This document shows, piece after piece, positions 3,052-28,631 of a stretch of DNA of 64,000 nt; the first letter of the stretch is position 1; the number at the start of each line of letters is the position of its first letter. A program made the translations under genes and the position numbers. A model generated the notes under the pieces. The model made no database searches. It saw nothing but the letters and a program-made list of their open reading frames with translations, and was not told the origin of the DNA. The DNA lies in sequence record PQ724392.1. One strand, given 5' to 3'. The DNA comes from a phage.

Positions 3052-3059
3052 TATAAATA
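3052..3059 (+). promoter_or_regulatory. T4-type late promoter (TATAAATA) for gp9 and downstream wedge genes
   Basis: Exact TATAAATA about 28 nt upstream of the gp9 ATG, just after a terminator. Confidence 0.6.
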
Positions 3060-10606: not shown

Positions 10607-11391
10607 TGGCTACTTATGACGCAAGATTATTCGCCCGGCTCGAAGACGGGACCGGGTATGACAATACCAATGCTACAGAGATATTGAACCCTTATGTAAA
10701 CTTTATGCATCATGAAAATACCCAGACTTTAGCCGATGCTATTGTTGCTGAAAGTATTCAGATGCGCGGGATGTCTCTCTATTATATCCCAAGACAATTC
10801 GTTAAACCAGATTTGTTATTTGGTGAAGACCTCCAGAGTAAATTTGATAAAGCATGGAAATTTGCTGGATATCTGGATACGTTCGATGCATATCAGGGTG
10901 ATGGTTCTATCTTTAGTAAATTCGGTATGACTGTGAACGATGAAATTACAATATCCATTAACCCTAATCTGTTTAAACACCAATGCAATGGAACTGAACC
11001 TATTGCCGGGGATTTGATTTATTTCCCTCTTGATAACAGCCTGTTCGAAATTACATGGGTGCAACCTTATGACCCATTCTATCAGGTAGGTCAAAATGCT
11101 ATCCGTAAAATCACCGCGAGCAAATACATTTACTCTGGAGAAGAGCTTAAACCCGAATTGCAACGAAATGAAGGTATTAATATTCCAGAATTCAGTGAGC
11201 TCGATTTACAACCAATCCACAATATCGACGGTCTTACAGATATCAGCGATATCCCTTATGCTGAATCCAATGAGATTAACACAGAAGCAGCTGAATATGT
11301 TAAACCATATTTTGTGCAGAATGGTCGTGGACTTGAGGCTCCACCTAAGGCAAAACAGGATAGCTTTGACGATAGTTTCTTTGATGAATAA
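10606..11391 (+). CDS. 14: Neck protein gp14
   Basis: 261 aa (T4 256 aa); TAATG coupling with gp13. Confidence 0.75.
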
Positions 11392-11434
11392 ATACATTTA
11401 TTAATGCGCCCGAACTGGGCGCCTGGAGGTTACT

Positions 11435-12306
11435 TTGTTTGGGCATTTTTATAATTCGTCTCTGCGTCGCTATATCGTTTTAATGGGCGATTTATTTTCC
11501 CATGTACAAGTGGCCAGAACCAGAGAAGACACTGGACTTAAATATATTAAGGTCCCTATTTCTTATGCTTCAAAAGAAAAATTCATGATGCAGCTTGGAA
11601 AATGGACCGCTATTCAGAATACACCGACTCCTGACATGTCACCACAAGAACGTGCTGCTCAGAAGGCTAAAATCGAGACCGTATTGCCCCGTATGAACCT
11701 ACATATGGTTGACTTGATGTATAACGGGCAATATAAAACGGCTCTCCAGAATCACACACAGGCGCGATTTGCTAATAACGACCCTCGCAAGCAGATATCT
11801 CAATATTCTCCTGTGCCGGTCAAAATGATTTTCGAGCTTGGAATATATACAAGGCATCAAGATGATATGTTCCAGATTATCGAACAAATCATGCCTTACT
11901 TCCAACCACATTTTAATACAACTATCACCGAACTTTACACGAATGAAATTACATTCGAACGTGATATAAGAATCGTATTGCAGTCAATTGCTATGGATGA
12001 GCAAATTGAAGGTGATGCAATGACTCGTCGTAGACTCGAATGGTCCATTATGTTCGAAGTTAACGGTTGGTTATATCCACCGGTCAAGGAAGTAGCCGGG
12101 GAAATCCGTACTATCTATCTTGACTTCTTTGCAAATTCCAGAGAGCTTGCACCGGAGGGCAATTTCGAATCTGTTGACTCGGAAGCTGTTCCACGAGACG
12201 TCGACCAAGAAGACTGGCAAGGTGAATCTGTTCAAACATATTCGCAGGATATTCCTGTACCGGTTGACCCAGCACCGCCAGCCCCAAGAAAAAATAGGGT
12301 ACCACT

Positions 12307-12310
<4 letters not shown>
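11435..12310 (+). CDS. 15: Tail sheath stabilizer / tail completion protein gp15; apparent TTG start
   Basis: N-terminus [13 protein letters not shown]...MGDLFS matches T4 gp15; first codon at 11435 is TTG, 5 nt after a GGAGG Shine-Dalgarno. Confidence 0.75.
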
Positions 12311-14617
<2,307 letters not shown>

Positions 14618-21143: not shown

Positions 21144-22703
21144 ATGAAAAAGAATGCATTAGTTCAAAAATGGTCCGCTCTGTTGGAAAACGAAGCTCTT
21201 CCGGAAATCGTTGGTGCTTCCAAACAAGCTATCATCGCTAAAATCTTTGAAAACCAGGAACAAGATATTCTGACCGCTCCTGAATACCGTGACGAAAAAA
21301 TCTCCGAAGCATTTGGTTCTTTCCTGACCGAAGCTGAAATCGGTGGTGACCATGGTTATGATGCTACCAATATCGCTGCTGGCCAGACCTCTGGTGCAGT
21401 AACTCAGATTGGGCCGGCAGTTATGGGCATGGTTCGTCGTGCTATCCCGCATCTGATTGCGTTTGATATTTGTGGCGTACAGCCTCTGAACAACCCGACT
21501 GGCCAGGTATTTGCCCTGCGTGCAGTTTACGGTAAAGACCCTGTAGCTGCAGGTGCTAAAGAAGCTTTCCATCCGATGTATGCTCCGAACGCTATGTTCT
21601 CTGGTCAGGGCGCTGCTCAGACTTTTGAAGCACTGGCTGCAGGTAAAGTTCTGGAAGTTGGTAAAATTTATTCTCACTTCTTCGAAGCAACTGGTTCCGC
21701 ACACTTCCAGGCTGTTGAAGCTGTAACCGTTGATGCTGGCGCTACTGATGCTGCTAAACTGGATGCTGAAGTTACCAAACTGCTCGAAGCTGGTCAGCTG
21801 GCTGAACTGGCTGAAGGTATGGCTACCTCCATCGCCGAACTGCAAGAAGGTTTTAACGGTTCCTCTGATAACCCGTGGAACGAAATGGGCTTCCGTATTG
21901 ACAAACAAGTTATCGAAGCTAAATCTCGTCAGCTGAAAGCAAGCTACTCTATCGAACTGGCACAGGACCTGCGCGCTGTTCATGGTATGGATGCTGATGC
22001 CGAATTGAGTGGTATTCTGGCTACCGAAATTATGCTGGAAATCAACCGCGAAGTTATTGATTGGATTAACTACTCCGCACAGGTTGGTAAATCTGGTATG
22101 ACCAACACCGTTGGCGCTAAAGCTGGTGTGTTTGACTTCCAGGACCCGATTGATATCCGTGGTGCTCGTTGGGCTGGTGAAAGCTTCAAAGCTTTACTGT
22201 TCCAGATTGATAAAGAAGCCGCTGAAATCGCTCGTCAGACCGGTCGTGGTGCAGGTAACTTCATCATCGCTTCCCGTAACGTAGTTAACGTACTGGCTGC
22301 TGTTGATACTTCTGTTAGTTATGCTGCTCAGGGTCTGGGTAAAGGTTTCAACGTTGACACCACTAAAGCTGTGTTCGCTGGTGTTCTGGGTGGCAAATAC
22401 CGTGTCTATATCGACCAGTATGCTCGTGCAGATTACTTCACCATCGGTTACAAAGGCGCTAACGAAATGGATGCTGGTATCTACTACGCACCATATGTTG
22501 CACTGACCCCGCTGCGTGGCTCTGACCCGAAAAACTTCCAGCCGGTTATGGGCTTCAAAACCCGTTACGGTATCGGTATCAACCCGTTTGCTGACCCTGC
22601 TGCTCAGGCTCCGACCAAGCGCATTCAGAACGGCATGCCGGATATCGTTAACAGCCTTGGCTTGAACGGTTACTTCCGCCGCGTATATGTTAAAGGAATT
22701 TAA
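21144..22703 (+). CDS. 23: Major capsid protein gp23
   Basis: 519 aa (T4 521 aa); codon usage typical of a highly expressed gene; strong terminator follows. Confidence 0.95.
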   Translation: MKKNALVQKWSALLENEALPEIVGASKQAIIAKIFENQEQDILTAPEYRDEKISEAFGSFLTEAEIGGDHGYDATNIAAGQTSGAVTQIGPAVMGMVRRAIPHLIAFDICGVQPLNNPTGQVFALRAVYGKDPVAAGAKEAFHPMYAPNAMFSGQGAAQTFEALAAGKVLEVGKIYSHFFEATGSAHFQAVEAVTVDAGATDAAKLDAEVTKLLEAGQLAELAEGMATSIAELQEGFNGSSDNPWNEMGFRIDKQVIEAKSRQLKASYSIELAQDLRAVHGMDADAELSGILATEIMLEINREVIDWINYSAQVGKSGMTNTVGAKAGVFDFQDPIDIRGARWAGESFKALLFQIDKEAAEIARQTGRGAGNFIIASRNVVNVLAAVDTSVSYAAQGLGKGFNVDTTKAVFAGVLGGKYRVYIDQYARADYFTIGYKGANEMDAGIYYAPYVALTPLRGSDPKNFQPVMGFKTRYGIGINPFADPAAQAPTKRIQNGMPDIVNSLGLNGYFRRVYVKGI

Positions 22704-22726
22704 TCCTAGATTAAGTTAAATAAAAA

Positions 22727-22754
22727 GGGACCCTTGAGGTCCCTTTCTTGTTTT
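22727..22754. terminator. Bidirectional terminator between gp23 and the convergent 93-aa ORF
   Basis: GGGACCCTTGAGGTCCC hairpin flanked by an A-run upstream and a T-run downstream. Confidence 0.7.
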
Positions 22755-23035
22755 CATACCATACCATTTAAATGAACTTCTACCCGGCGCTTGATGAGGT
22801 CTCTGAAGTTAACATTGTTTTCTTGAAGTTTCAACCAGTTACCATTTTTATCTTTAGTGTGAGTAGAATAATTACCATTCCACCAGAAATCAGTGTCATA
22901 TGCTAAGTTTTCATATTTTTTAACTAGTTTGTTCAGAGCATTGCCATTAACACCATTTGGGTATTTGTTGACCAATGCAATAACTTCAATTTCCAATTTT
23001 TTAAAGGTATTCAGAAGGAAAGTTGCTTTGTTCAT
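22754..23035 (-). CDS. Hypothetical protein (93 aa) inserted between gp23 and gp24; cargo of a PeSL-like early-promoter cassette
   Basis: ORF with ATG start, preceded by the conserved TGTACA-N17-CATAAT promoter and the CCATACTGAGTTAACA...GGAG leader; ends at the bidirectional gp23 terminator. Confidence 0.5.
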   Translation of the reverse strand: MNKATFLLNTFKKLEIEVIALVNKYPNGVNGNALNKLVKKYENLAYDTDFWWNGNYSTHTKDKNGNWLKLQENNVNFRDLIKRRVEVHLNGMV

Positions 23036-23075
23036 TTTAGACTCCAGGTTTTGTTTGTTAACTCAGTATGGAATC

Positions 23076-23104
23076 ATTATGTCTTATCTTAATCTGGTTG
23101 TAAA
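23076..23104 (-). promoter_or_regulatory. PeSL-like early promoter (sigma70-type) upstream of ORF 22754-23035
   Basis: On the - strand: TTTACA-N17-CATAAT followed by the conserved leader GATTCCATACTGAGTTAACA...GGAG. Confidence 0.55.
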
Positions 23105-23111
23105 CAACTTT

Positions 23112-23119
23112 TATAAATA
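23112..23119 (+). promoter_or_regulatory. T4-type late promoter for gp24
   Basis: Exact TATAAATA 27 nt upstream of the gp24 ATG. Confidence 0.6.
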
Positions 23120-23145
23120 AAGTATATCACAAAAGGAAAGCGCAA

Positions 23146-24426
23146 ATGGCAAAGATTAACAAATTACTGCGCGAGTCAACTATTACTACCAGCAACTCCT
23201 TGGGCCGCCCGAATCTTGTTGCTTTGACCCGCGCTACGACTAAATTGATTTACCGCGATATCATCGCTGAACAACGTACTAACCAGCCTGTTGCTGCACT
23301 GTATGGTGTTAAATATCTTACTCCTGATAACGAATTCAGTTTCCAGACGGGCGCTACTTATGGAGGTGAAGTCGGTTCTAAAGACCGTACAACTATTCCA
23401 GAGTTAGCTACAGCCACTCAACCTGTGGCTAAAGGCGAATATGTAAAATACCAAAATATCGTTTATAAAGCTCTGGTTGATAATCCATTTGCATCGACCA
23501 CAGAAACAGTGTTATCTGATGTTCTGCAAGAAGGTCTTATTGCATCGACTATTCGTTTAGTTCCTGATGCGGCACACACCGAGAAATTCGAAGCTGGTGA
23601 TGTTGAAATTAGCAATGCTGTATTCCAGGTTAACAAATGGAATGCCCCGGTTAAAACACGTAAATTGAAAACTGCATTAACTGTTGAACTTGCTCAGGAT
23701 ATGGAAGCAAATGGTTTTAACGCTCCTGCATTCTTGGAAGACCTGCTTGCCACTATTATGGCAGATGAAATTAACAAAGATGTTCTTCAGTCTCTTATTA
23801 CCGTTTCCAAGCGTTATAAAGTAACTGGCGTTTCTGACAATGGCACCATCGATTTAACATACGATGCAGCCCCAGAAGGTGCACGTAAACTGTACGAACT
23901 GGTTTGCGAAATGAACTCCGAAATTCAGAAAACTACATCTTATTCCGGTACCTTTGTTGTTGCCTCTAGCCGTGTTGCTGCTATGTTGGCCGGTTCTGGT
24001 TGGTTGAAACACAGGCCAGAAGATGAGCAATGGCTCCCCGAAACAGCGTACGGTTATTTGATTAATGGCCTCCCTGTATTCTGTGATGTTAACAGTCCAT
24101 TGGATTATGTAACTGTTGGTGTTAAAGAAAATTACGGCGGAAACGAAGTCGTAGGCTCAATTTTCTATGCTCCTTATACCGAAGGCCTGGACTTGGATGA
24201 TGAAGAGCACGTTGGTGCGTTTAAGGTCATTGTGGACCCAGACAGCTTGCAGCCATCTATCTCTCTGATGGTTCGTTACGCACTTTCAGCTAACCCGTAC
24301 ACCGTTGCTAAAGACGATAAAGAAGCTCGTATTATCGATGCAACCAATATGGATTTAATGGCCGGTCAGAGCAATATGTCTTATCTGCTCGGTGTTAAAC
24401 TTCCGCCAATCATTTATGAGGCGTAA
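23146..24426 (+). CDS. 24: Head vertex protein gp24 (copy 1)
   Basis: 426 aa (T4 427 aa); late promoter at 23112-23119; AAGGAAA Shine-Dalgarno. Confidence 0.85.
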   Translation: MAKINKLLRESTITTSNSLGRPNLVALTRATTKLIYRDIIAEQRTNQPVAALYGVKYLTPDNEFSFQTGATYGGEVGSKDRTTIPELATATQPVAKGEYVKYQNIVYKALVDNPFASTTETVLSDVLQEGLIASTIRLVPDAAHTEKFEAGDVEISNAVFQVNKWNAPVKTRKLKTALTVELAQDMEANGFNAPAFLEDLLATIMADEINKDVLQSLITVSKRYKVTGVSDNGTIDLTYDAAPEGARKLYELVCEMNSEIQKTTSYSGTFVVASSRVAAMLAGSGWLKHRPEDEQWLPETAYGYLINGLPVFCDVNSPLDYVTVGVKENYGGNEVVGSIFYAPYTEGLDLDDEEHVGAFKVIVDPDSLQPSISLMVRYALSANPYTVAKDDKEARIIDATNMDLMAGQSNMSYLLGVKLPPIIYEA

Positions 24427-25710
24427 ATGCAAAAGATTAATGCACTAATTCACGAATCAACATTAACGGCGGCCAACCAGGTCGCCCGTCCTAATTTGCT
24501 TTCTTATACTCAGGCTACGAATAAACGAATTTTTAAAGCACTCGTGGCCGAACAGAAAACTACCCAGCCTGTTGCAGCCCTGTATGGTGTTCGTGTTCTG
24601 AACCCAGATGATAAAATGACTTATCTCGGTGGAGCAACATTTGCAGGTCAGATTGGTATGTTCGAGCGTAAGAATATTCCAGAATTTACAAACAAAGACG
24701 AAGCTTATGCAGTCGGCGATATGTTCCAGTTTGAAAGTGTTGTGTTCAAAGTTTTGGAAGCATCCCCATTCGCCGGTACACTCGAAACTGATTTAGGTGA
24801 AGTTATTTCTGAAGCCATTGCTGCTGGGCATATAAGAATGATGTCAGATGCTGCTTTCACTGATAAATTTGAAAAGGGGCATCCTGAAATTGCTGAAGCT
24901 GGTTTTCGTATCGATAAATGGCAGACTGAAGTTAAATCCAGAAAGTTGAAAACTTCTTTAACTGTCGAGCTTGCCCAGGACCTGGAAGCAAACGGTTTTG
25001 ATGCAACAGACTTCATCGATAATATTCTCGGCATTCAAATGGCAGAGGAAATTAATAAGGATGTACTGCAATCTCTTATTACTGTTAGTTCCCGTTTCAA
25101 GGTGCAAGGTGTTTCTGAAAAAGGTGTATTGAATCTTACTGACCCGAAATATGATAACGCACAGGACCGCGCACGAACCCTGTATTATTATATGTGTGAA
25201 ATGAATTCTGCAGTTCAACGTCAGACTTCGTTTGCTGGTACATATGCAGTTGCTTCTTCCCGTTGTGCAGCTATTTTAGCCGCTTCTGGCTGGGTTGAGA
25301 AAAAGGAAGACCAGGATGAATTGGCCTATGGTGTTCTGAAGAACGGTTTGCCTCTTTACGCTGATATGAATAGTCCATGTGATTATGTTATTGTTGGTGT
25401 AAATGCAGATATGGGTGAAGGTCAGACGGTCGCATCTTTATATTATGCGCCTTATACGGAAGGACTTAGCGAAGTTGATGATGAGGGTGATACCTCGGTT
25501 GGGGAATTCAAGGTTATTGTTGACCCTGAAAGCTTACAGCCTACGGTTGCACTGTTAGCTCGTTATGCTTTGACTGCAAACCCTTACACCGTTGCTAAAG
25601 ATGATAAAGAAGCTCGCCTTATTGATGGAGCTGATATGGATAAGATGGCCAACCAAAGCCAATTGAGTTCTTATCTTGGCGTTAAACTTCCACCGCTGGA
25701 AAAAGAATAA
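24427..25710 (+). CDS. Head vertex protein gp24 paralog (copy 2)
   Basis: 427 aa; roughly 50% identical to the preceding gp24 along its length (e.g. shared QPVAALYGV, ARPNL, YAPYTEGL, ANPYTVAKDDKEAR motifs); starts 1 nt after the copy-1 stop. Confidence 0.8.
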   Translation: MQKINALIHESTLTAANQVARPNLLSYTQATNKRIFKALVAEQKTTQPVAALYGVRVLNPDDKMTYLGGATFAGQIGMFERKNIPEFTNKDEAYAVGDMFQFESVVFKVLEASPFAGTLETDLGEVISEAIAAGHIRMMSDAAFTDKFEKGHPEIAEAGFRIDKWQTEVKSRKLKTSLTVELAQDLEANGFDATDFIDNILGIQMAEEINKDVLQSLITVSSRFKVQGVSEKGVLNLTDPKYDNAQDRARTLYYYMCEMNSAVQRQTSFAGTYAVASSRCAAILAASGWVEKKEDQDELAYGVLKNGLPLYADMNSPCDYVIVGVNADMGEGQTVASLYYAPYTEGLSEVDDEGDTSVGEFKVIVDPESLQPTVALLARYALTANPYTVAKDDKEARLIDGADMDKMANQSQLSSYLGVKLPPLEKE

Positions 25711-25730
25711 GGGCCTTGCGGCCCTTTTTT
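25711..25730. terminator. Bidirectional terminator between the gp24 paralog and convergent rnlB
   Basis: GGGCCTTGCGGCCC hairpin followed by TTTTTT; an A-run on the other side overlaps the rnlB stop. Confidence 0.7.
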
Positions 25731-26736
25731 ATTCACTAATTAATGCAATCCATACATGTCTTAATGTTTCTTTTACATTTGCGATAAGTTGCTTTTTAAC
25801 TTCAACAGGATTTTCTGTCTGGGTTAATTCAAGTCCTTCACGACCCGCTTCTTCCAGGATATCCTGGACAGTCAAACCCATTACCTTTCCAAAATCCTTA
25901 GGTGTTACTTCCCCAATCTTACTGATAACATTATTGATACGGTTGACAGTCACATAATCAGTAAACTTCCATAAAACATCCAGGTCTTCCTGTGACAACA
26001 CAACTGCAGCTTTAATAGGCTTATCAGACTTTTTCTTTTCACTGAATTTAGAGTTCTTGCATTTAATCGCTACGCGCTCGCCGTTATATAACCAGGCAGG
26101 AACATCAGGTTTTAATACAAATCCTTCAGCAGTGAATACTTTACCTTCCACCTTTGCATCAAAATCAGTGGTATTTGCTGTAGTCAATCCTGCGTTATCC
26201 ACTGTAAAATTGTAATCAGGGACCACAGAATCCAGGTCATTAGGGAGCTTAATCAAGTCTTCAAAACTACCTGTGGCCAGGCGTGGAGCAACTTTAAACT
26301 TATGAATAATACAAAAGGCTTCCATAAGTGTGTCAGTCAGGACGGATTCAGAGCCATCTTCCTTAGTAACGCGGATATCAAACACATAGAAATCTTTATC
26401 GCCGTAATCCACATTCTTCTGAATACCTGTACCAGCAAACTCACCATAAATCTGGTAAGCCTGGTAATTAATATCCTGTAAAAGTTTCTGCACAGATTTA
26501 ATAGAATCTGCGTAGTTCTTTAATACAATTTCATAACCATAGAAATCTTCTGCAGGTAAGATAGGTCCAGTGCGTTTCGCGCATGTCACATTGTCTTGTT
26601 CAATAATTAATGAAAAATTGGTACCATGAATCTTTTCACGCGCTACCCATTCACCGCTGGTGAAGCCTTGCAGGCGAATCTTTTCAATGAACTTGTTGTT
26701 ATAGTGATTTTCAAGGCTGTTGTATTTCTTAAACAT
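25729..26736 (-). CDS. rnlB: RNA ligase 2
   Basis: 335 aa; near-collinear match to T4 Rnl2 (MFKKY.SLENHYN.KFIEK...[12 protein letters not shown]...KRTGPI). Confidence 0.9.
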
Positions 26737-27330: not shown

Positions 27331-27474
27331 GTTGAGTTAGTGAAGCTATCTTAACATGGAATTTTTAACTTGTAAACATGATTTTTATGCCAGATGGACC
27401 AATTGTATGGTATGGCCACAAAGACTTACCGGAGAAGGGGCCAGGCAACGTTTGCTCAGTACCATAAAAATAAA

Positions 27475-27495
27475 GGGACCCGAAGGTCCCTTTTT
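27475..27495. terminator. Terminator downstream of hoc
   Basis: GGGACCCGAAGGTCCC hairpin with a T-run on the + side and A-rich flank on the other. Confidence 0.6.
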
Positions 27496-27497
27496 AA

Positions 27498-28631
27498 TTA
27501 ATAAACGTAATCGTATATAATACCAGTTTCTAAAGCGGTGCGATGAATAACTCGACCATTACGAGATTCTTGTACATCAACCTCTGGATAGTCGGTAATC
27601 ATTTTTTGAAGTGTGTATCGGTGCAAATAATACGGGCTATCTGGGTCATCAGTTTTCCAGTCTTGCCCAGCAAGAGTCATTTTCTGAATTTCATCCATAA
27701 CCCACCAACCACACCAGATATAAGCTGAATTACGTACTGGCAATGGGTGAATATATGGTAATTCGCCATCTGGAACTGGTGCGACTTTAGCCGTGACTGT
27801 TACATTACCAGTTTTGGTAACGGTTACAGGGTTATAATCTGTAGCAGATACAACAACAGAAACTTCAATTAACTGGGAACCTTCGGCGCTTGTATCGATT
27901 GCCAAAGTATCCGTGGTGCCAACTACAGGAGAACCGTCTTTCTTCCAAGAATAGGCAAAAGTAGCACCAGCAGGCGCACCGGCTACAGTAGCTTTAAAAG
28001 AAGCCGGAGTTCCTTCAGGAACATTAATAGAGGTCGGTGCTAAAGTAACAGAAACACCCGACATAGTTTTCTTAACAAAAGTTACCGCAGCTCCTTTAGA
28101 TGCGGTGCCATTATTATAATCGGGTGCAGAAACAGTAACTTCACAGTTCAATGTATAATTTGCTTCTGCTGATTCGGTGACGGTAATAGTTTTATCAGTT
28201 TGACCTGCGATTACGCTAGTGTTACGTTTCCAAACGTAAGCGATTGTTGCACCAGAAGGAGCGCCTGTCACGTTAGCAGTAACAACTTGAGATTGCCCCA
28301 CTTCTTTAGTAACAGAGGCAGGGTCTAAAGTCAATGTAATAGCAGGCATTGTTTTATTCTGGATAGTTAAAGTTGTTTCGGCTTCAGCTGTTTCTGGTTC
28401 GCCGTCCGCTGGTGTAGTTGTTGCAACAACTTTAATAGTCTTACTGCCTGCTGGACCAACAGCAACATAATCCATTGCAGCAGTCACAGAAGATTGAGGA
28501 ACGCCATCAACGGTCCAGACAAATGATTCGGTACCTTCAACTGCAGCACCGGAACCGGTCGCAGTGAAATTGGTTGTTGCTCCAATAACGGCCGTAGCCG
28601 CCAAAGGAGCAATAGCTACGGTATAAGCCAT
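27498..28631 (-). CDS. hoc: Highly immunogenic outer capsid protein Hoc (Ig-like repeats)
   Basis: 377 aa (T4 376 aa); internally repeated Ig-like modules (e.g. V(T/A)GAPxGAT(I/F)AY.WK); position between rnlB and inh. Confidence 0.7.
   Translation of the reverse strand: MAYTVAIAPLAATAVIGATTNFTATGSGAAVEGTESFVWTVDGVPQSSVTAAMDYVAVGPAGSKTIKVVATTTPADGEPETAEAETTLTIQNKTMPAITLTLDPASVTKEVGQSQVVTANVTGAPSGATIAYVWKRNTSVIAGQTDKTITVTESAEANYTLNCEVTVSAPDYNNGTASKGAAVTFVKKTMSGVSVTLAPTSINVPEGTPASFKATVAGAPAGATFAYSWKKDGSPVVGTTDTLAIDTSAEGSQLIEVSVVVSATDYNPVTVTKTGNVTVTAKVAPVPDGELPYIHPLPVRNSAYIWCGWWVMDEIQKMTLAGQDWKTDDPDSPYYLHRYTLQKMITDYPEVDVQESRNGRVIHRTALETGIIYDYVY

Follow-up and report, generated by a model that had tools for sequence, protein, structure and literature searches.

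The window analysed here, a stretch of 64,000 nucleotides (nt) from the phage sequence record PQ724392.1, contains between positions 23146 and 25710 two adjacent genes, called 24.1 and 24.2 in the following, which would form a late bicistronic operon encoding two paralogous head vertex proteins of the HK97 fold. The product of 24.1 is the orthologue of T4 gp24, and 24.2 represents an ancient sister lineage located immediately downstream of 24.1 in every locus examined. We consider it probable that both are bona fide vertex proteins, that both are incorporated and that both are needed in their own genomes. The two proteins would be made late and at a coupled ratio, would join the prohead, where the gp21 protease would trim them after Glu10, and would occupy the 11 non-portal vertices as pentamers, most likely as separate homopentamers sharing the vertices, that is, as a subfunctionalised pair. 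The vertex paralogue named 24.2 here has to be distinguished from the T4 open reading frame (ORF) gp24.2, a homologue of which lies beyond rnlB. The elements of the putative operon are the following.

Positions 23112-23119, + strand: T4-type late promoter TATAAATA, 27 nt 5' of the 24.1 ATG, the sole one predicted for the pair.
Positions 23133-23140, + strand: Shine-Dalgarno sequence AAGGAAAG of 24.1, kept across relatives.
Positions 23146-24426, + strand: gene 24.1, 426 amino acids (aa), ATG start; predicted capsid vertex protein, T4 gp24 orthologue.
Positions 23146-23175, + strand: predicted 24.1 propeptide MAKINKLLRE↓S, codons 1-10, with the gp21 cut expected after Glu10.
Positions 24418-24421, + strand: Shine-Dalgarno sequence GAGG of 24.2, inside the last 24.1 codons and 5 nt before the ATG.
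Positions 24427-25710, + strand: gene 24.2, 427 aa, ATG start; second predicted capsid vertex paralogue, of the 24.2 clade.
Positions 24427-24456, + strand: predicted 24.2 propeptide MQKINALIHE↓S, codons 1-10, with the gp21 cut expected after Glu10.
Positions 25711-25733, no strand assigned: terminator, a GC-rich hairpin GGGCC-ttgc-GGCCC followed by TTTTTTATT, which overlaps the stop of the convergent rnlB.

The initial annotation had described two back-to-back homologous ORFs with an identity of about 50% judged by eye, and this estimate proved close. Indeed, BLASTP aligns the two proteins with 235/428 identities (55%) and 75% positives (E 1e-172), colinearly from end to end with 10 gap positions, a similarity that lies far above what chance would be expected to give. 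Both match the Pfam family PF07068 (Gp23 family) with nearly the same score (329 bits for 24.1 and 327 bits for 24.2) and both belong to the PHROG family phrog_138; no NCBIfam model was found for either. The proposal that both resemble gp24 was also borne out: the T4 gp24 chain 1yue_A matches over residues 1-424 both 24.1 (E 2.8e-193, 645.6 bits) and 24.2 (E 4.3e-148, 497 bits), whereas gp23 chains reach merely 44-51 bits (about E 1e-11) and the window's own gp23 is 28-29% identical over part of the length. Full-length homology therefore places the two proteins clearly with gp24 rather than with gp23. Identity to T4 gp24 amounts to 69% for 24.1 and 56% (55-56%) for 24.2 and, since a structure has been solved at this distance (55-69% identity), their fold can be regarded as settled. 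The gene order of the head cluster is common to the window, VR7 and T4, and the pair stands at the place of gene 24, of which T4 has, as initially stated, a single one, between segD and rnlB. Judged from their sequences, 24.1 resembles T4 gp24 in all the traits that could be tested and 24.2 in sequence, position and motif.

The motif in question is (L/I)-x-E↓S at residues 8-11, which reads LLRE↓S in 24.1 and LIHE↓S in 24.2 and is kept in all the orthologues compared, including eight out of eight 24.2 sequences. In 24.1 it stands in a register identical to that of T4 gp24, from which gp21 removes the 10 N-terminal residues to give gp24* (PMC9958956, PMC9546572), and when the mature chains 5vf3_a and 8gmo_A are aligned to the two window proteins, the match starts at residue 11 of each. 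Retention of the motif is thus compatible with the entry of both proteins into the prohead.

Signals around the genes suggest one late operon consisting of a promoter, 24.1, a coupled 24.2 and a terminator. The late promoter TATAAATA upstream of 24.1, as expected for a gene 24, is found at the same place in eight relatives (VR7, JS98, IME281, LG358, P545, IT22, T4 and SP18). No match to this pattern occurs between 23120 and 25710, and no promoter was found inside 24.1 in VR7, JS98, IME281, LG358, P545, IT22 or the IMG/VR loci L026, L029 (CIP9-like) and L032; 24.2 is probably read off the 24.1 transcript, without a promoter of its own. The two genes lie head to tail on one strand, and the TAA of 24.1 directly abuts the ATG of 24.2. 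The junction has likewise a gap of 0 nt in VR7, JS98 and IME281, an overlap of 1 nt in LG358 and of 4 nt in P545, and a gap of 1 nt in IT22 and CIP9, and a GAGG or GAG before 24.2 is kept in VR7, JS98, IME281, LG358, P545, IT22 and the CIP9-like locus. Abutment of TAA and ATG, together with a GAGG embedded in the end of 24.1, suggests translational coupling from 24.1 to 24.2, and the two-gene layout recurs in seven other lineages. Over the whole window, the TATAAATA pattern gave 18 matches against 4.3 expected from shuffles; these copies, which appear to mark the late transcription units of the window, include sites at 3052, 9642, 14111, 17324, 20267 and 23112, and 14 of the 15 copies on the + strand are located within 1-30000, 5' of structural genes.

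The initial annotation had implied that such a pair would be unusual, which does not hold, as the pair is the norm of its group. It is already known and has been annotated since the JS98 genome (2007 according to a reference list citing it). In GenBank, the genes are called 24(1) and 24(2) in VR7, 24a and 24b in JS98, JS10 and IME08, "capsid vertex protein I/II" in VR20, VR25, VR26 and CJ20, "head vertex protein I/II" in CGG4-1 and "head vertex protein II" in ZX14, and annotated pairs are also present in S16, Melville, Marfa, F48, Cronus and CIP9. The pair of the window is a plain member of this 24a/24b family and ordinary for its group. Using 24.2 as tblastn query, we found 1,417 phage records with 1,536 places, a surplus of 119, at E≤1e-40 (gp24 in general), and 117 records at E≤1e-175, where every single-copy gp24 is left out; the matches in these 117 span 80% or more of the protein. 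As 117 nearly equals the surplus of 119, nearly all the phages with 24.2 must have another gp24 and few others have two. According to the first word of the organism name, the 117 records comprise Escherichia (55), Klebsiella (22), Salmonella (16), Enterobacter (9), Enterobacteria (5), Erwinia (3), Kosakonia (2) and a few others. In IMG/VR, 24.2 (with an identity of 78% or more) was found at 16 loci, in all of which 24.1 lies immediately upstream on the same strand, and eight loci with more distant matches carry one gene each. Neither in the 117 records nor in these 16 loci was 24.2 found without 24.1.

From the taxonomy lines, 24.2 is present in Gaprivervirus, Dhakavirus, Gelderlandvirus, Marfavirus, Roskildevirus and Kanagawavirus (Kanagawavirus cipnine), and the single-copy representatives belong to Tequatrovirus, Mosigvirus, Karamvirus, Jiaodavirus, Kanagawavirus pei20, Ac42 (Twarogvirinae), Bragavirus, Biquartavirus, Pseudotevenvirus and Krischvirus. 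The gp24 match of Klebsiella phage KPV15 (NC_055715.1, 115654-116924) lies in two pieces annotated as two "capsid vertex" coding sequences, which probably reflects a frameshift, a sequencing error or an interrupted gene and no true pair. A homing endonuclease is annotated under the gp24 match in a few records (vB_EkoM5VN, ATK47).

Phylogeny was addressed with neighbour-joining distance trees of 26-28 gp24 proteins and 200-300 bootstraps. The 24.2 proteins form one clade with a support of 100% over the full length, 95% for residues 1-70 and 100% for residues 161-340, and the 24.1 copies fall together (96-100%) with the gp24 of single-copy phages, namely T4, Mosigvirus, Karamvirus, Kanagawavirus and SP18. 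Each gene of the window pairs with its VR7 counterpart (100% for 24.1 and 99% for 24.2). Within the 24.2 clade the branching order is Roskildevirus, then Marfavirus with the CIP9-like phages, then Gelderlandvirus, then Dhakavirus with Gaprivervirus, and the same order is found in the 24.1 clade. Orthologue identities to the window run in parallel and are given below.

VR7: 97% for 24.1 and 98% for 24.2.
JS98 (also IME281): 89% for 24.1 and 95% for 24.2.
Gelderlandvirus: 84% for 24.1 and 84% for 24.2.
CIP9: 83% for 24.1 and 82% for 24.2.
Marfavirus: 74% for 24.1 and 80% for 24.2.
Roskildevirus: 64% for 24.1 and 68% for 24.2.

Considering the single 24.2 clade, the mirrored trees and the similar orthologue identities, the split between 24.1 and 24.2 appears to predate the divergence of the genera bearing the pair, and the two genes seem to have been inherited together since. 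Moreover, the identity between paralogues stays at 53-57% in the six pair-bearing lineages, and this constancy indicates that the tandem copies were not homogenised by gene conversion. To the existing annotations, the present computation adds the one-time origin of the pair and the mirrored descent of its two genes. In the gp23 tree, genera with the pair are intermingled with genera that have a single gene, which implies several losses of 24.2 or a transfer of the cassette.

The origin of the second gene is less clear-cut, the deep nodes of the gp24 tree having a support of 59-69%. Instead of a duplicate of the resident gene 24 formed in place, 24.2 might be a xenologue acquired from a T4-like lineage with a Jiaodavirus-like gp24, the cassette having then spread by recombination among co-infecting phages, and we regard this origin as a tenable but clearly less probable one. 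It would explain why the single-copy gp24 nearest to 24.2 is that of Jiaodavirus (64%, against 55-56% for T4), which groups with the 24.2 clade over residues 161-340 (71% bootstrap), and it would agree with the scatter of pair-bearing genera over the gp23 tree and with the swapping of the cassette between near-identical flanks. However, the mirrored subtrees fit long co-inheritance, the deep nodes of the neighbour-joining trees are weak, and the Jiaodavirus gene looks like a mosaic whose N- and C-terminal parts are 24.1-like, so that it is equally possibly a collapsed pair. In the example used here (Klebsiella phage FRZ284, locus L007, 3001-4281), the stretches 1-70 and 341-427 fall with the 24.1/T4 type; this gene might have originated from the collapse of a 24.1/24.2 pair or from gene conversion, or it might be related to the donor of 24.2.

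Both copies are under strong purifying selection, if anything stronger on 24.2. Nei-Gojobori estimates of the ratio of non-synonymous to synonymous substitution rates (dN/dS) between the window and its relatives are the following.

Window versus JS98: 0.056 for 24.1 and 0.018 for 24.2.
Window versus VR7: 0.039 for 24.1 and 0.029 for 24.2.
Window versus IME281: 0.059 for 24.1 and 0.019 for 24.2.

No decayed or truncated 24.2 was seen in the 117 records, all with a coverage of at least 80%. The initial suggestion of an old duplication that has been retained agrees with these values (0.02-0.06) as well as with the mirrored trees and with the 100% support of a 24.2 clade that spans six genera.

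The differences between the paralogues are unevenly distributed. In the window, their identity is lowest at residues 61-120 (33%) and highest at residues 211-240 (73%) and 365-394 (77%), and 128 columns show no variation among the two copies and seven single-copy Tevenvirinae gp24. Comparing 14 sequences of the 24.1 plus single type with seven 24.2 sequences, we found 11 columns fixed differently in 24.2 (T4 numbering): L8I, V25L, A26S, T32N, L34R, Y36F, K56R, Y57V, F66Y, P244Q and E335Q. Nine of these 11 substitutions fall within T4 residues 8-66 (Fisher p=5e-6). The outgroups carry the 24.1 state at positions 34, 57 and 66 (5/5) and at positions 244 and 335 (4/5), so that at these positions the state of 24.2 is the derived one; no covariation between residues 26 and 66 was found across the outgroups. 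In T4 gp24*, residues 11-20 extend after expansion onto the adjacent gp23 hexamer, residues 26-29 make a parallel β interaction with the I-domain linker of the neighbouring gp24*, and linker 1 (about residues 60-81) is stabilised by contacts within the pentamer (PMC9546572). The 24.2 signature thus falls in the N-terminal arm and in I-domain linker 1, the elements that bind a vertex subunit to its neighbours, and may change the preference for partners. This concentration in the arm and the linker is likewise an addition made by the present computation.

Close relatives with a single gene provide a natural comparison, for which we used the following loci.

SP18 (Gaprivervirus), locus L011, 3001-4281: single gp24.
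MX01 (Dhakavirus), locus L043, 3001-4281: single gp24.
CIP9 (Kanagawavirus), locus L044, 219-2781: pair.
PEi26 (Kanagawavirus), locus L010, 3001-4281: single gp24.

Shigella phage SP18 shares with the window a gp23 that is 98.8% and an RnlB that is 96.4% identical, and its single gp24 shows an identity of 69% with 24.1 of the window and of 54% with 24.2. In the same way, MX01 and JS98 have gp23 proteins that are 96.9% and RnlB proteins that are 97.6% identical, and the single gp24 of MX01 is 68.9% identical to 24.1 and 53.9% to 24.2. This SP18-type gp24 was found in 19 records (SP18, MX01, AnYang, KIT01 and others); it is sister to the gp24 of Kanagawavirus PEi26 (83% bootstrap), and both together are sister to the paired 24.1 clade. 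A blastn hint that the SP18 gene is a deletion recombinant of 24.1 and 24.2 was rejected, as the gene is 24.1-like throughout by sliding-window identity and never exceeds 68% to 24.2. The pair or single state is polymorphic within three genera (Gaprivervirus, Dhakavirus and Kanagawavirus), a third addition made by the present computation, and the gene 24 slot appears to behave like an exchangeable cassette. That a nearly identical gp23 lattice can be closed by two vertex proteins or by a single one argues against the lattice imposing the pair. These relatives fit subfunctionalisation as well as redundancy.

The initial suggestion of heteromeric or specialised vertices is a conjecture, although the changes specific to 24.2 do fall in contact elements. 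Among the arrangements of two vertex proteins, separate homopentamers are preferred because the elements changed in 24.2 are subunit and gp23 contacts in T4 and because a ring of five cannot alternate two types of subunits; a mixed pentamer of fixed composition would be the less likely arrangement. Several points weigh against two incorporated and necessary vertex proteins. All the 55 gp24* subunits of T4 are reported to be conformationally alike (PMC9546572), so that a prolate lattice shows no obvious need for two kinds of vertices. SP18 and MX01 seem to close a gp23 shell that is 97-99% identical with a single gp24, the proposed translational coupling is deduced from gene spacing, and a literature search that did not cover the original JS98 and VR7 genome papers found no discussion of the gp24 pair or of its virion proteomics. 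More doubtful is the specific arrangement in which two kinds of pentamers coexist in one head, for example at the six distal-cap and the five portal-proximal vertices, or with the axial vertex alone set apart, although a near 1:1 split into six and five vertices would fit translational coupling. Redundancy is unlikely in our opinion. Either protein alone would then build all 11 vertices and the second would be a spare, or an alternative allele for other hosts or conditions or for escape from a capsid-recognising host defence or antibody. SP18 and MX01, which manage with one gp24 on nearly the same gp23, the polymorphism inside three genera and the position of the strongest divergence between the paralogues, between the two I-domain linkers (about residues 61-120, 33% identity), speak for it, as do the bypass-24 mutations of T4, with which gp23 fills the vertices, so that vertex occupancy is plastic (PMC9958956). 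A spare copy should nevertheless decay or be lost often, yet both copies evolve at dN/dS 0.02-0.06, the 117 records hold no truncated 24.2, 24.2 was never found without 24.1, order and coupling are kept in six genera, and the fixed differences lie in contact elements and not just on the exposed surface.

We consider it improbable that 24.2 has left the vertex while keeping the HK97 fold, to act as an assembly factor activating gp21 or as a minor component of the shell or the interior, with the pentamers formed by 24.1 alone. Its first 70 residues are the most derived, the tree of residues 1-70 placing 24.2 below the gp24 of Acinetobacter and Proteus phages, and L34R and Y57V replace a leucine and a tyrosine conserved in all the outgroups. 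In addition, attachment of T4 gp24 to the prohead vertices has been proposed as the trigger of the protease (PMC9958956), which makes a regulatory specialisation conceivable. Against such a change of role stand the 128 columns invariant across both copies and the single Tevenvirinae gp24, and residues 161-427 (spine helix and core domains), which are 50-77% identical between the paralogues and whose conservation among the 24.2 proteins (78-91%) is no lower than among those of 24.1. Length and cleavage motif are moreover unaltered, and there is no hint of a new fold or partner. The probability of an artefact, either an assembly duplication or one copy being a pseudogene, is negligible: no point in its favour was found, and it is refuted by the 45% residue difference between the paralogues, by a proportion of synonymous differences near saturation (pS 0.65) and by the presence of both ORFs, intact, in more than 100 independent genomes. 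Two reasons for the existence of the pair were also set aside. A different capsid size is unlikely, as the genomes of pair-bearing Escherichia and Yersinia phages (169-172 kb) are about as long as that of T4 (168.9 kb). Adaptation to low temperature, at which the VR phages are described as growing, is not favoured, since Salmonella, Klebsiella, Enterobacter and Erwinia phages have the pair as well.

If there are indeed two kinds of pentamers, the 11 vertices would be non-equivalent and the series gp23, gp24 and 24.2 would represent a third level of specialisation, the prolate capsid would have a built-in marker of polarity, and SP18 and MX01 would show how a pair can collapse again. The sequence feature itself is ordinary, since a large group of T4-like phages normally has its gene 24 arranged in this way, and would not surprise a T4 specialist. 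The pair nevertheless constitutes a ready-made evolutionary experiment on the specialisation of capsid proteins, in which a vertex protein was duplicated again and both copies were kept for a long time, and the sister phages with an almost identical major capsid protein but a single gene make it testable whether the corners of a prolate head are alike. Several pair-bearing phages have been studied as antibacterial or biocontrol agents, and head stability is of possible practical interest; T4 gp24 has been tied to acid and protease resistance (PMC10580926).

The phage itself belongs to Gaprivervirus. With the region 22700-25800 as megablast query (91 phage records), the best match was Escherichia phage ECML-359 (99.3%), and VR7 (Gaprivervirus, Tevenvirinae, Straboviridae) reached 92%. 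The head cluster of the window runs portal (20), 67, 68, 21 (protease), 22 (scaffold), 23 (major capsid), a small ORF, 24.1 and 24.2, followed by rnlB, the T4 gp24.2-like ORF, a 24.3-like ORF, hoc, inh and uvsW. The features flanking the pair are the following.

Positions 22722-22749, no strand assigned: bidirectional terminator-like hairpin GGGACC-cttga-GGTCCC between an A-run and a T-run, 3' of gene 23.
Positions 22754-23035, - strand: ORF of 93 aa with no function assigned, homologue of JS98 orf173c and VR7 ORF190c, not part of the pair.
Positions 25729-26736, - strand: rnlB (RNA ligase 2), convergent on 24.2.

The stop codon of gene 23 is located at 22701-22703, and the hairpin behind it looks as if it closed both the gene 23 transcript and the reverse ORF. 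Between genes 23 and 24, this ORF occupies the slot that in T4 holds the homing endonuclease gene segD; its PHROG match is phrog_6003 ("unknown function", E 1.3e-45), and Pfam and NCBIfam searches gave no match. In the GenBank record EAWsc9, a "glycosyl hydrolase family 25" feature is annotated under the matched region, presumably at this ORF, for which Pfam gives no such match. On the other side of the pair, the RnlB of the window is 96% (96.4%) identical to that of SP18 and just 71% to that of VR7, with which its gp23 and its two gp24 proteins share 97-98% identity. As RnlB is SP18-like while gp23 and the gp24 copies are VR7-like, a recombination boundary lies just 3' of 24.2. Further downstream, VR7 (10756-12985 of its locus) has two additional genes between 24.3 and hoc, ORF196w for a collagen-repeat "tail fiber" protein and ORF197w for a second Hoc-like protein; the window has at the same spot a short intergenic gap (27331-27497) and one hoc of 377 aa (27498-28631, - strand).

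Among known systems, T4 gp24 (PDB 1YUE, 5VF3 and 7VS5) shares with the pair a similar length (427 aa versus 426 and 427), homology over the full length, the slot after gene 23 and before rnlB-hoc-inh, the late promoter and the N-terminal (L/I)xE↓S motif. T4 differs in having one gene 24, in having segD between genes 23 and 24 where the window has the small ORF, and in lacking the 11 clade-specific fixed substitutions of 24.2. The annotated pairs of JS98, VR7 and others consist of these two genes as well, identically ordered and spaced; nothing essential is different, and the flanks are mosaic. Like the pair, the SP18-type gp24 sits between gp23 (97-99% identical) and RnlB (96-98% identical) and shows the 24.1 state at the positions that set 24.2 apart; unlike the pair it is one gene, whose identity is just 69% with 24.1 and 54% with 24.2, and it is no hybrid. 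Finally, gp24 itself probably arose from gp23 by duplication (PMC9958956, PMC10580926), likewise a tandem copy of a capsid gene that was specialised for another position of the lattice. By analogy, 24.1 and 24.2 seem to result from the same process having taken place again, the difference being that gp23 and gp24 are about 20-29% identical and of unequal length, with propeptides of 65 and 10 residues and hexamers as against pentamers, whereas 24.1 and 24.2 are 55% identical and colinear.

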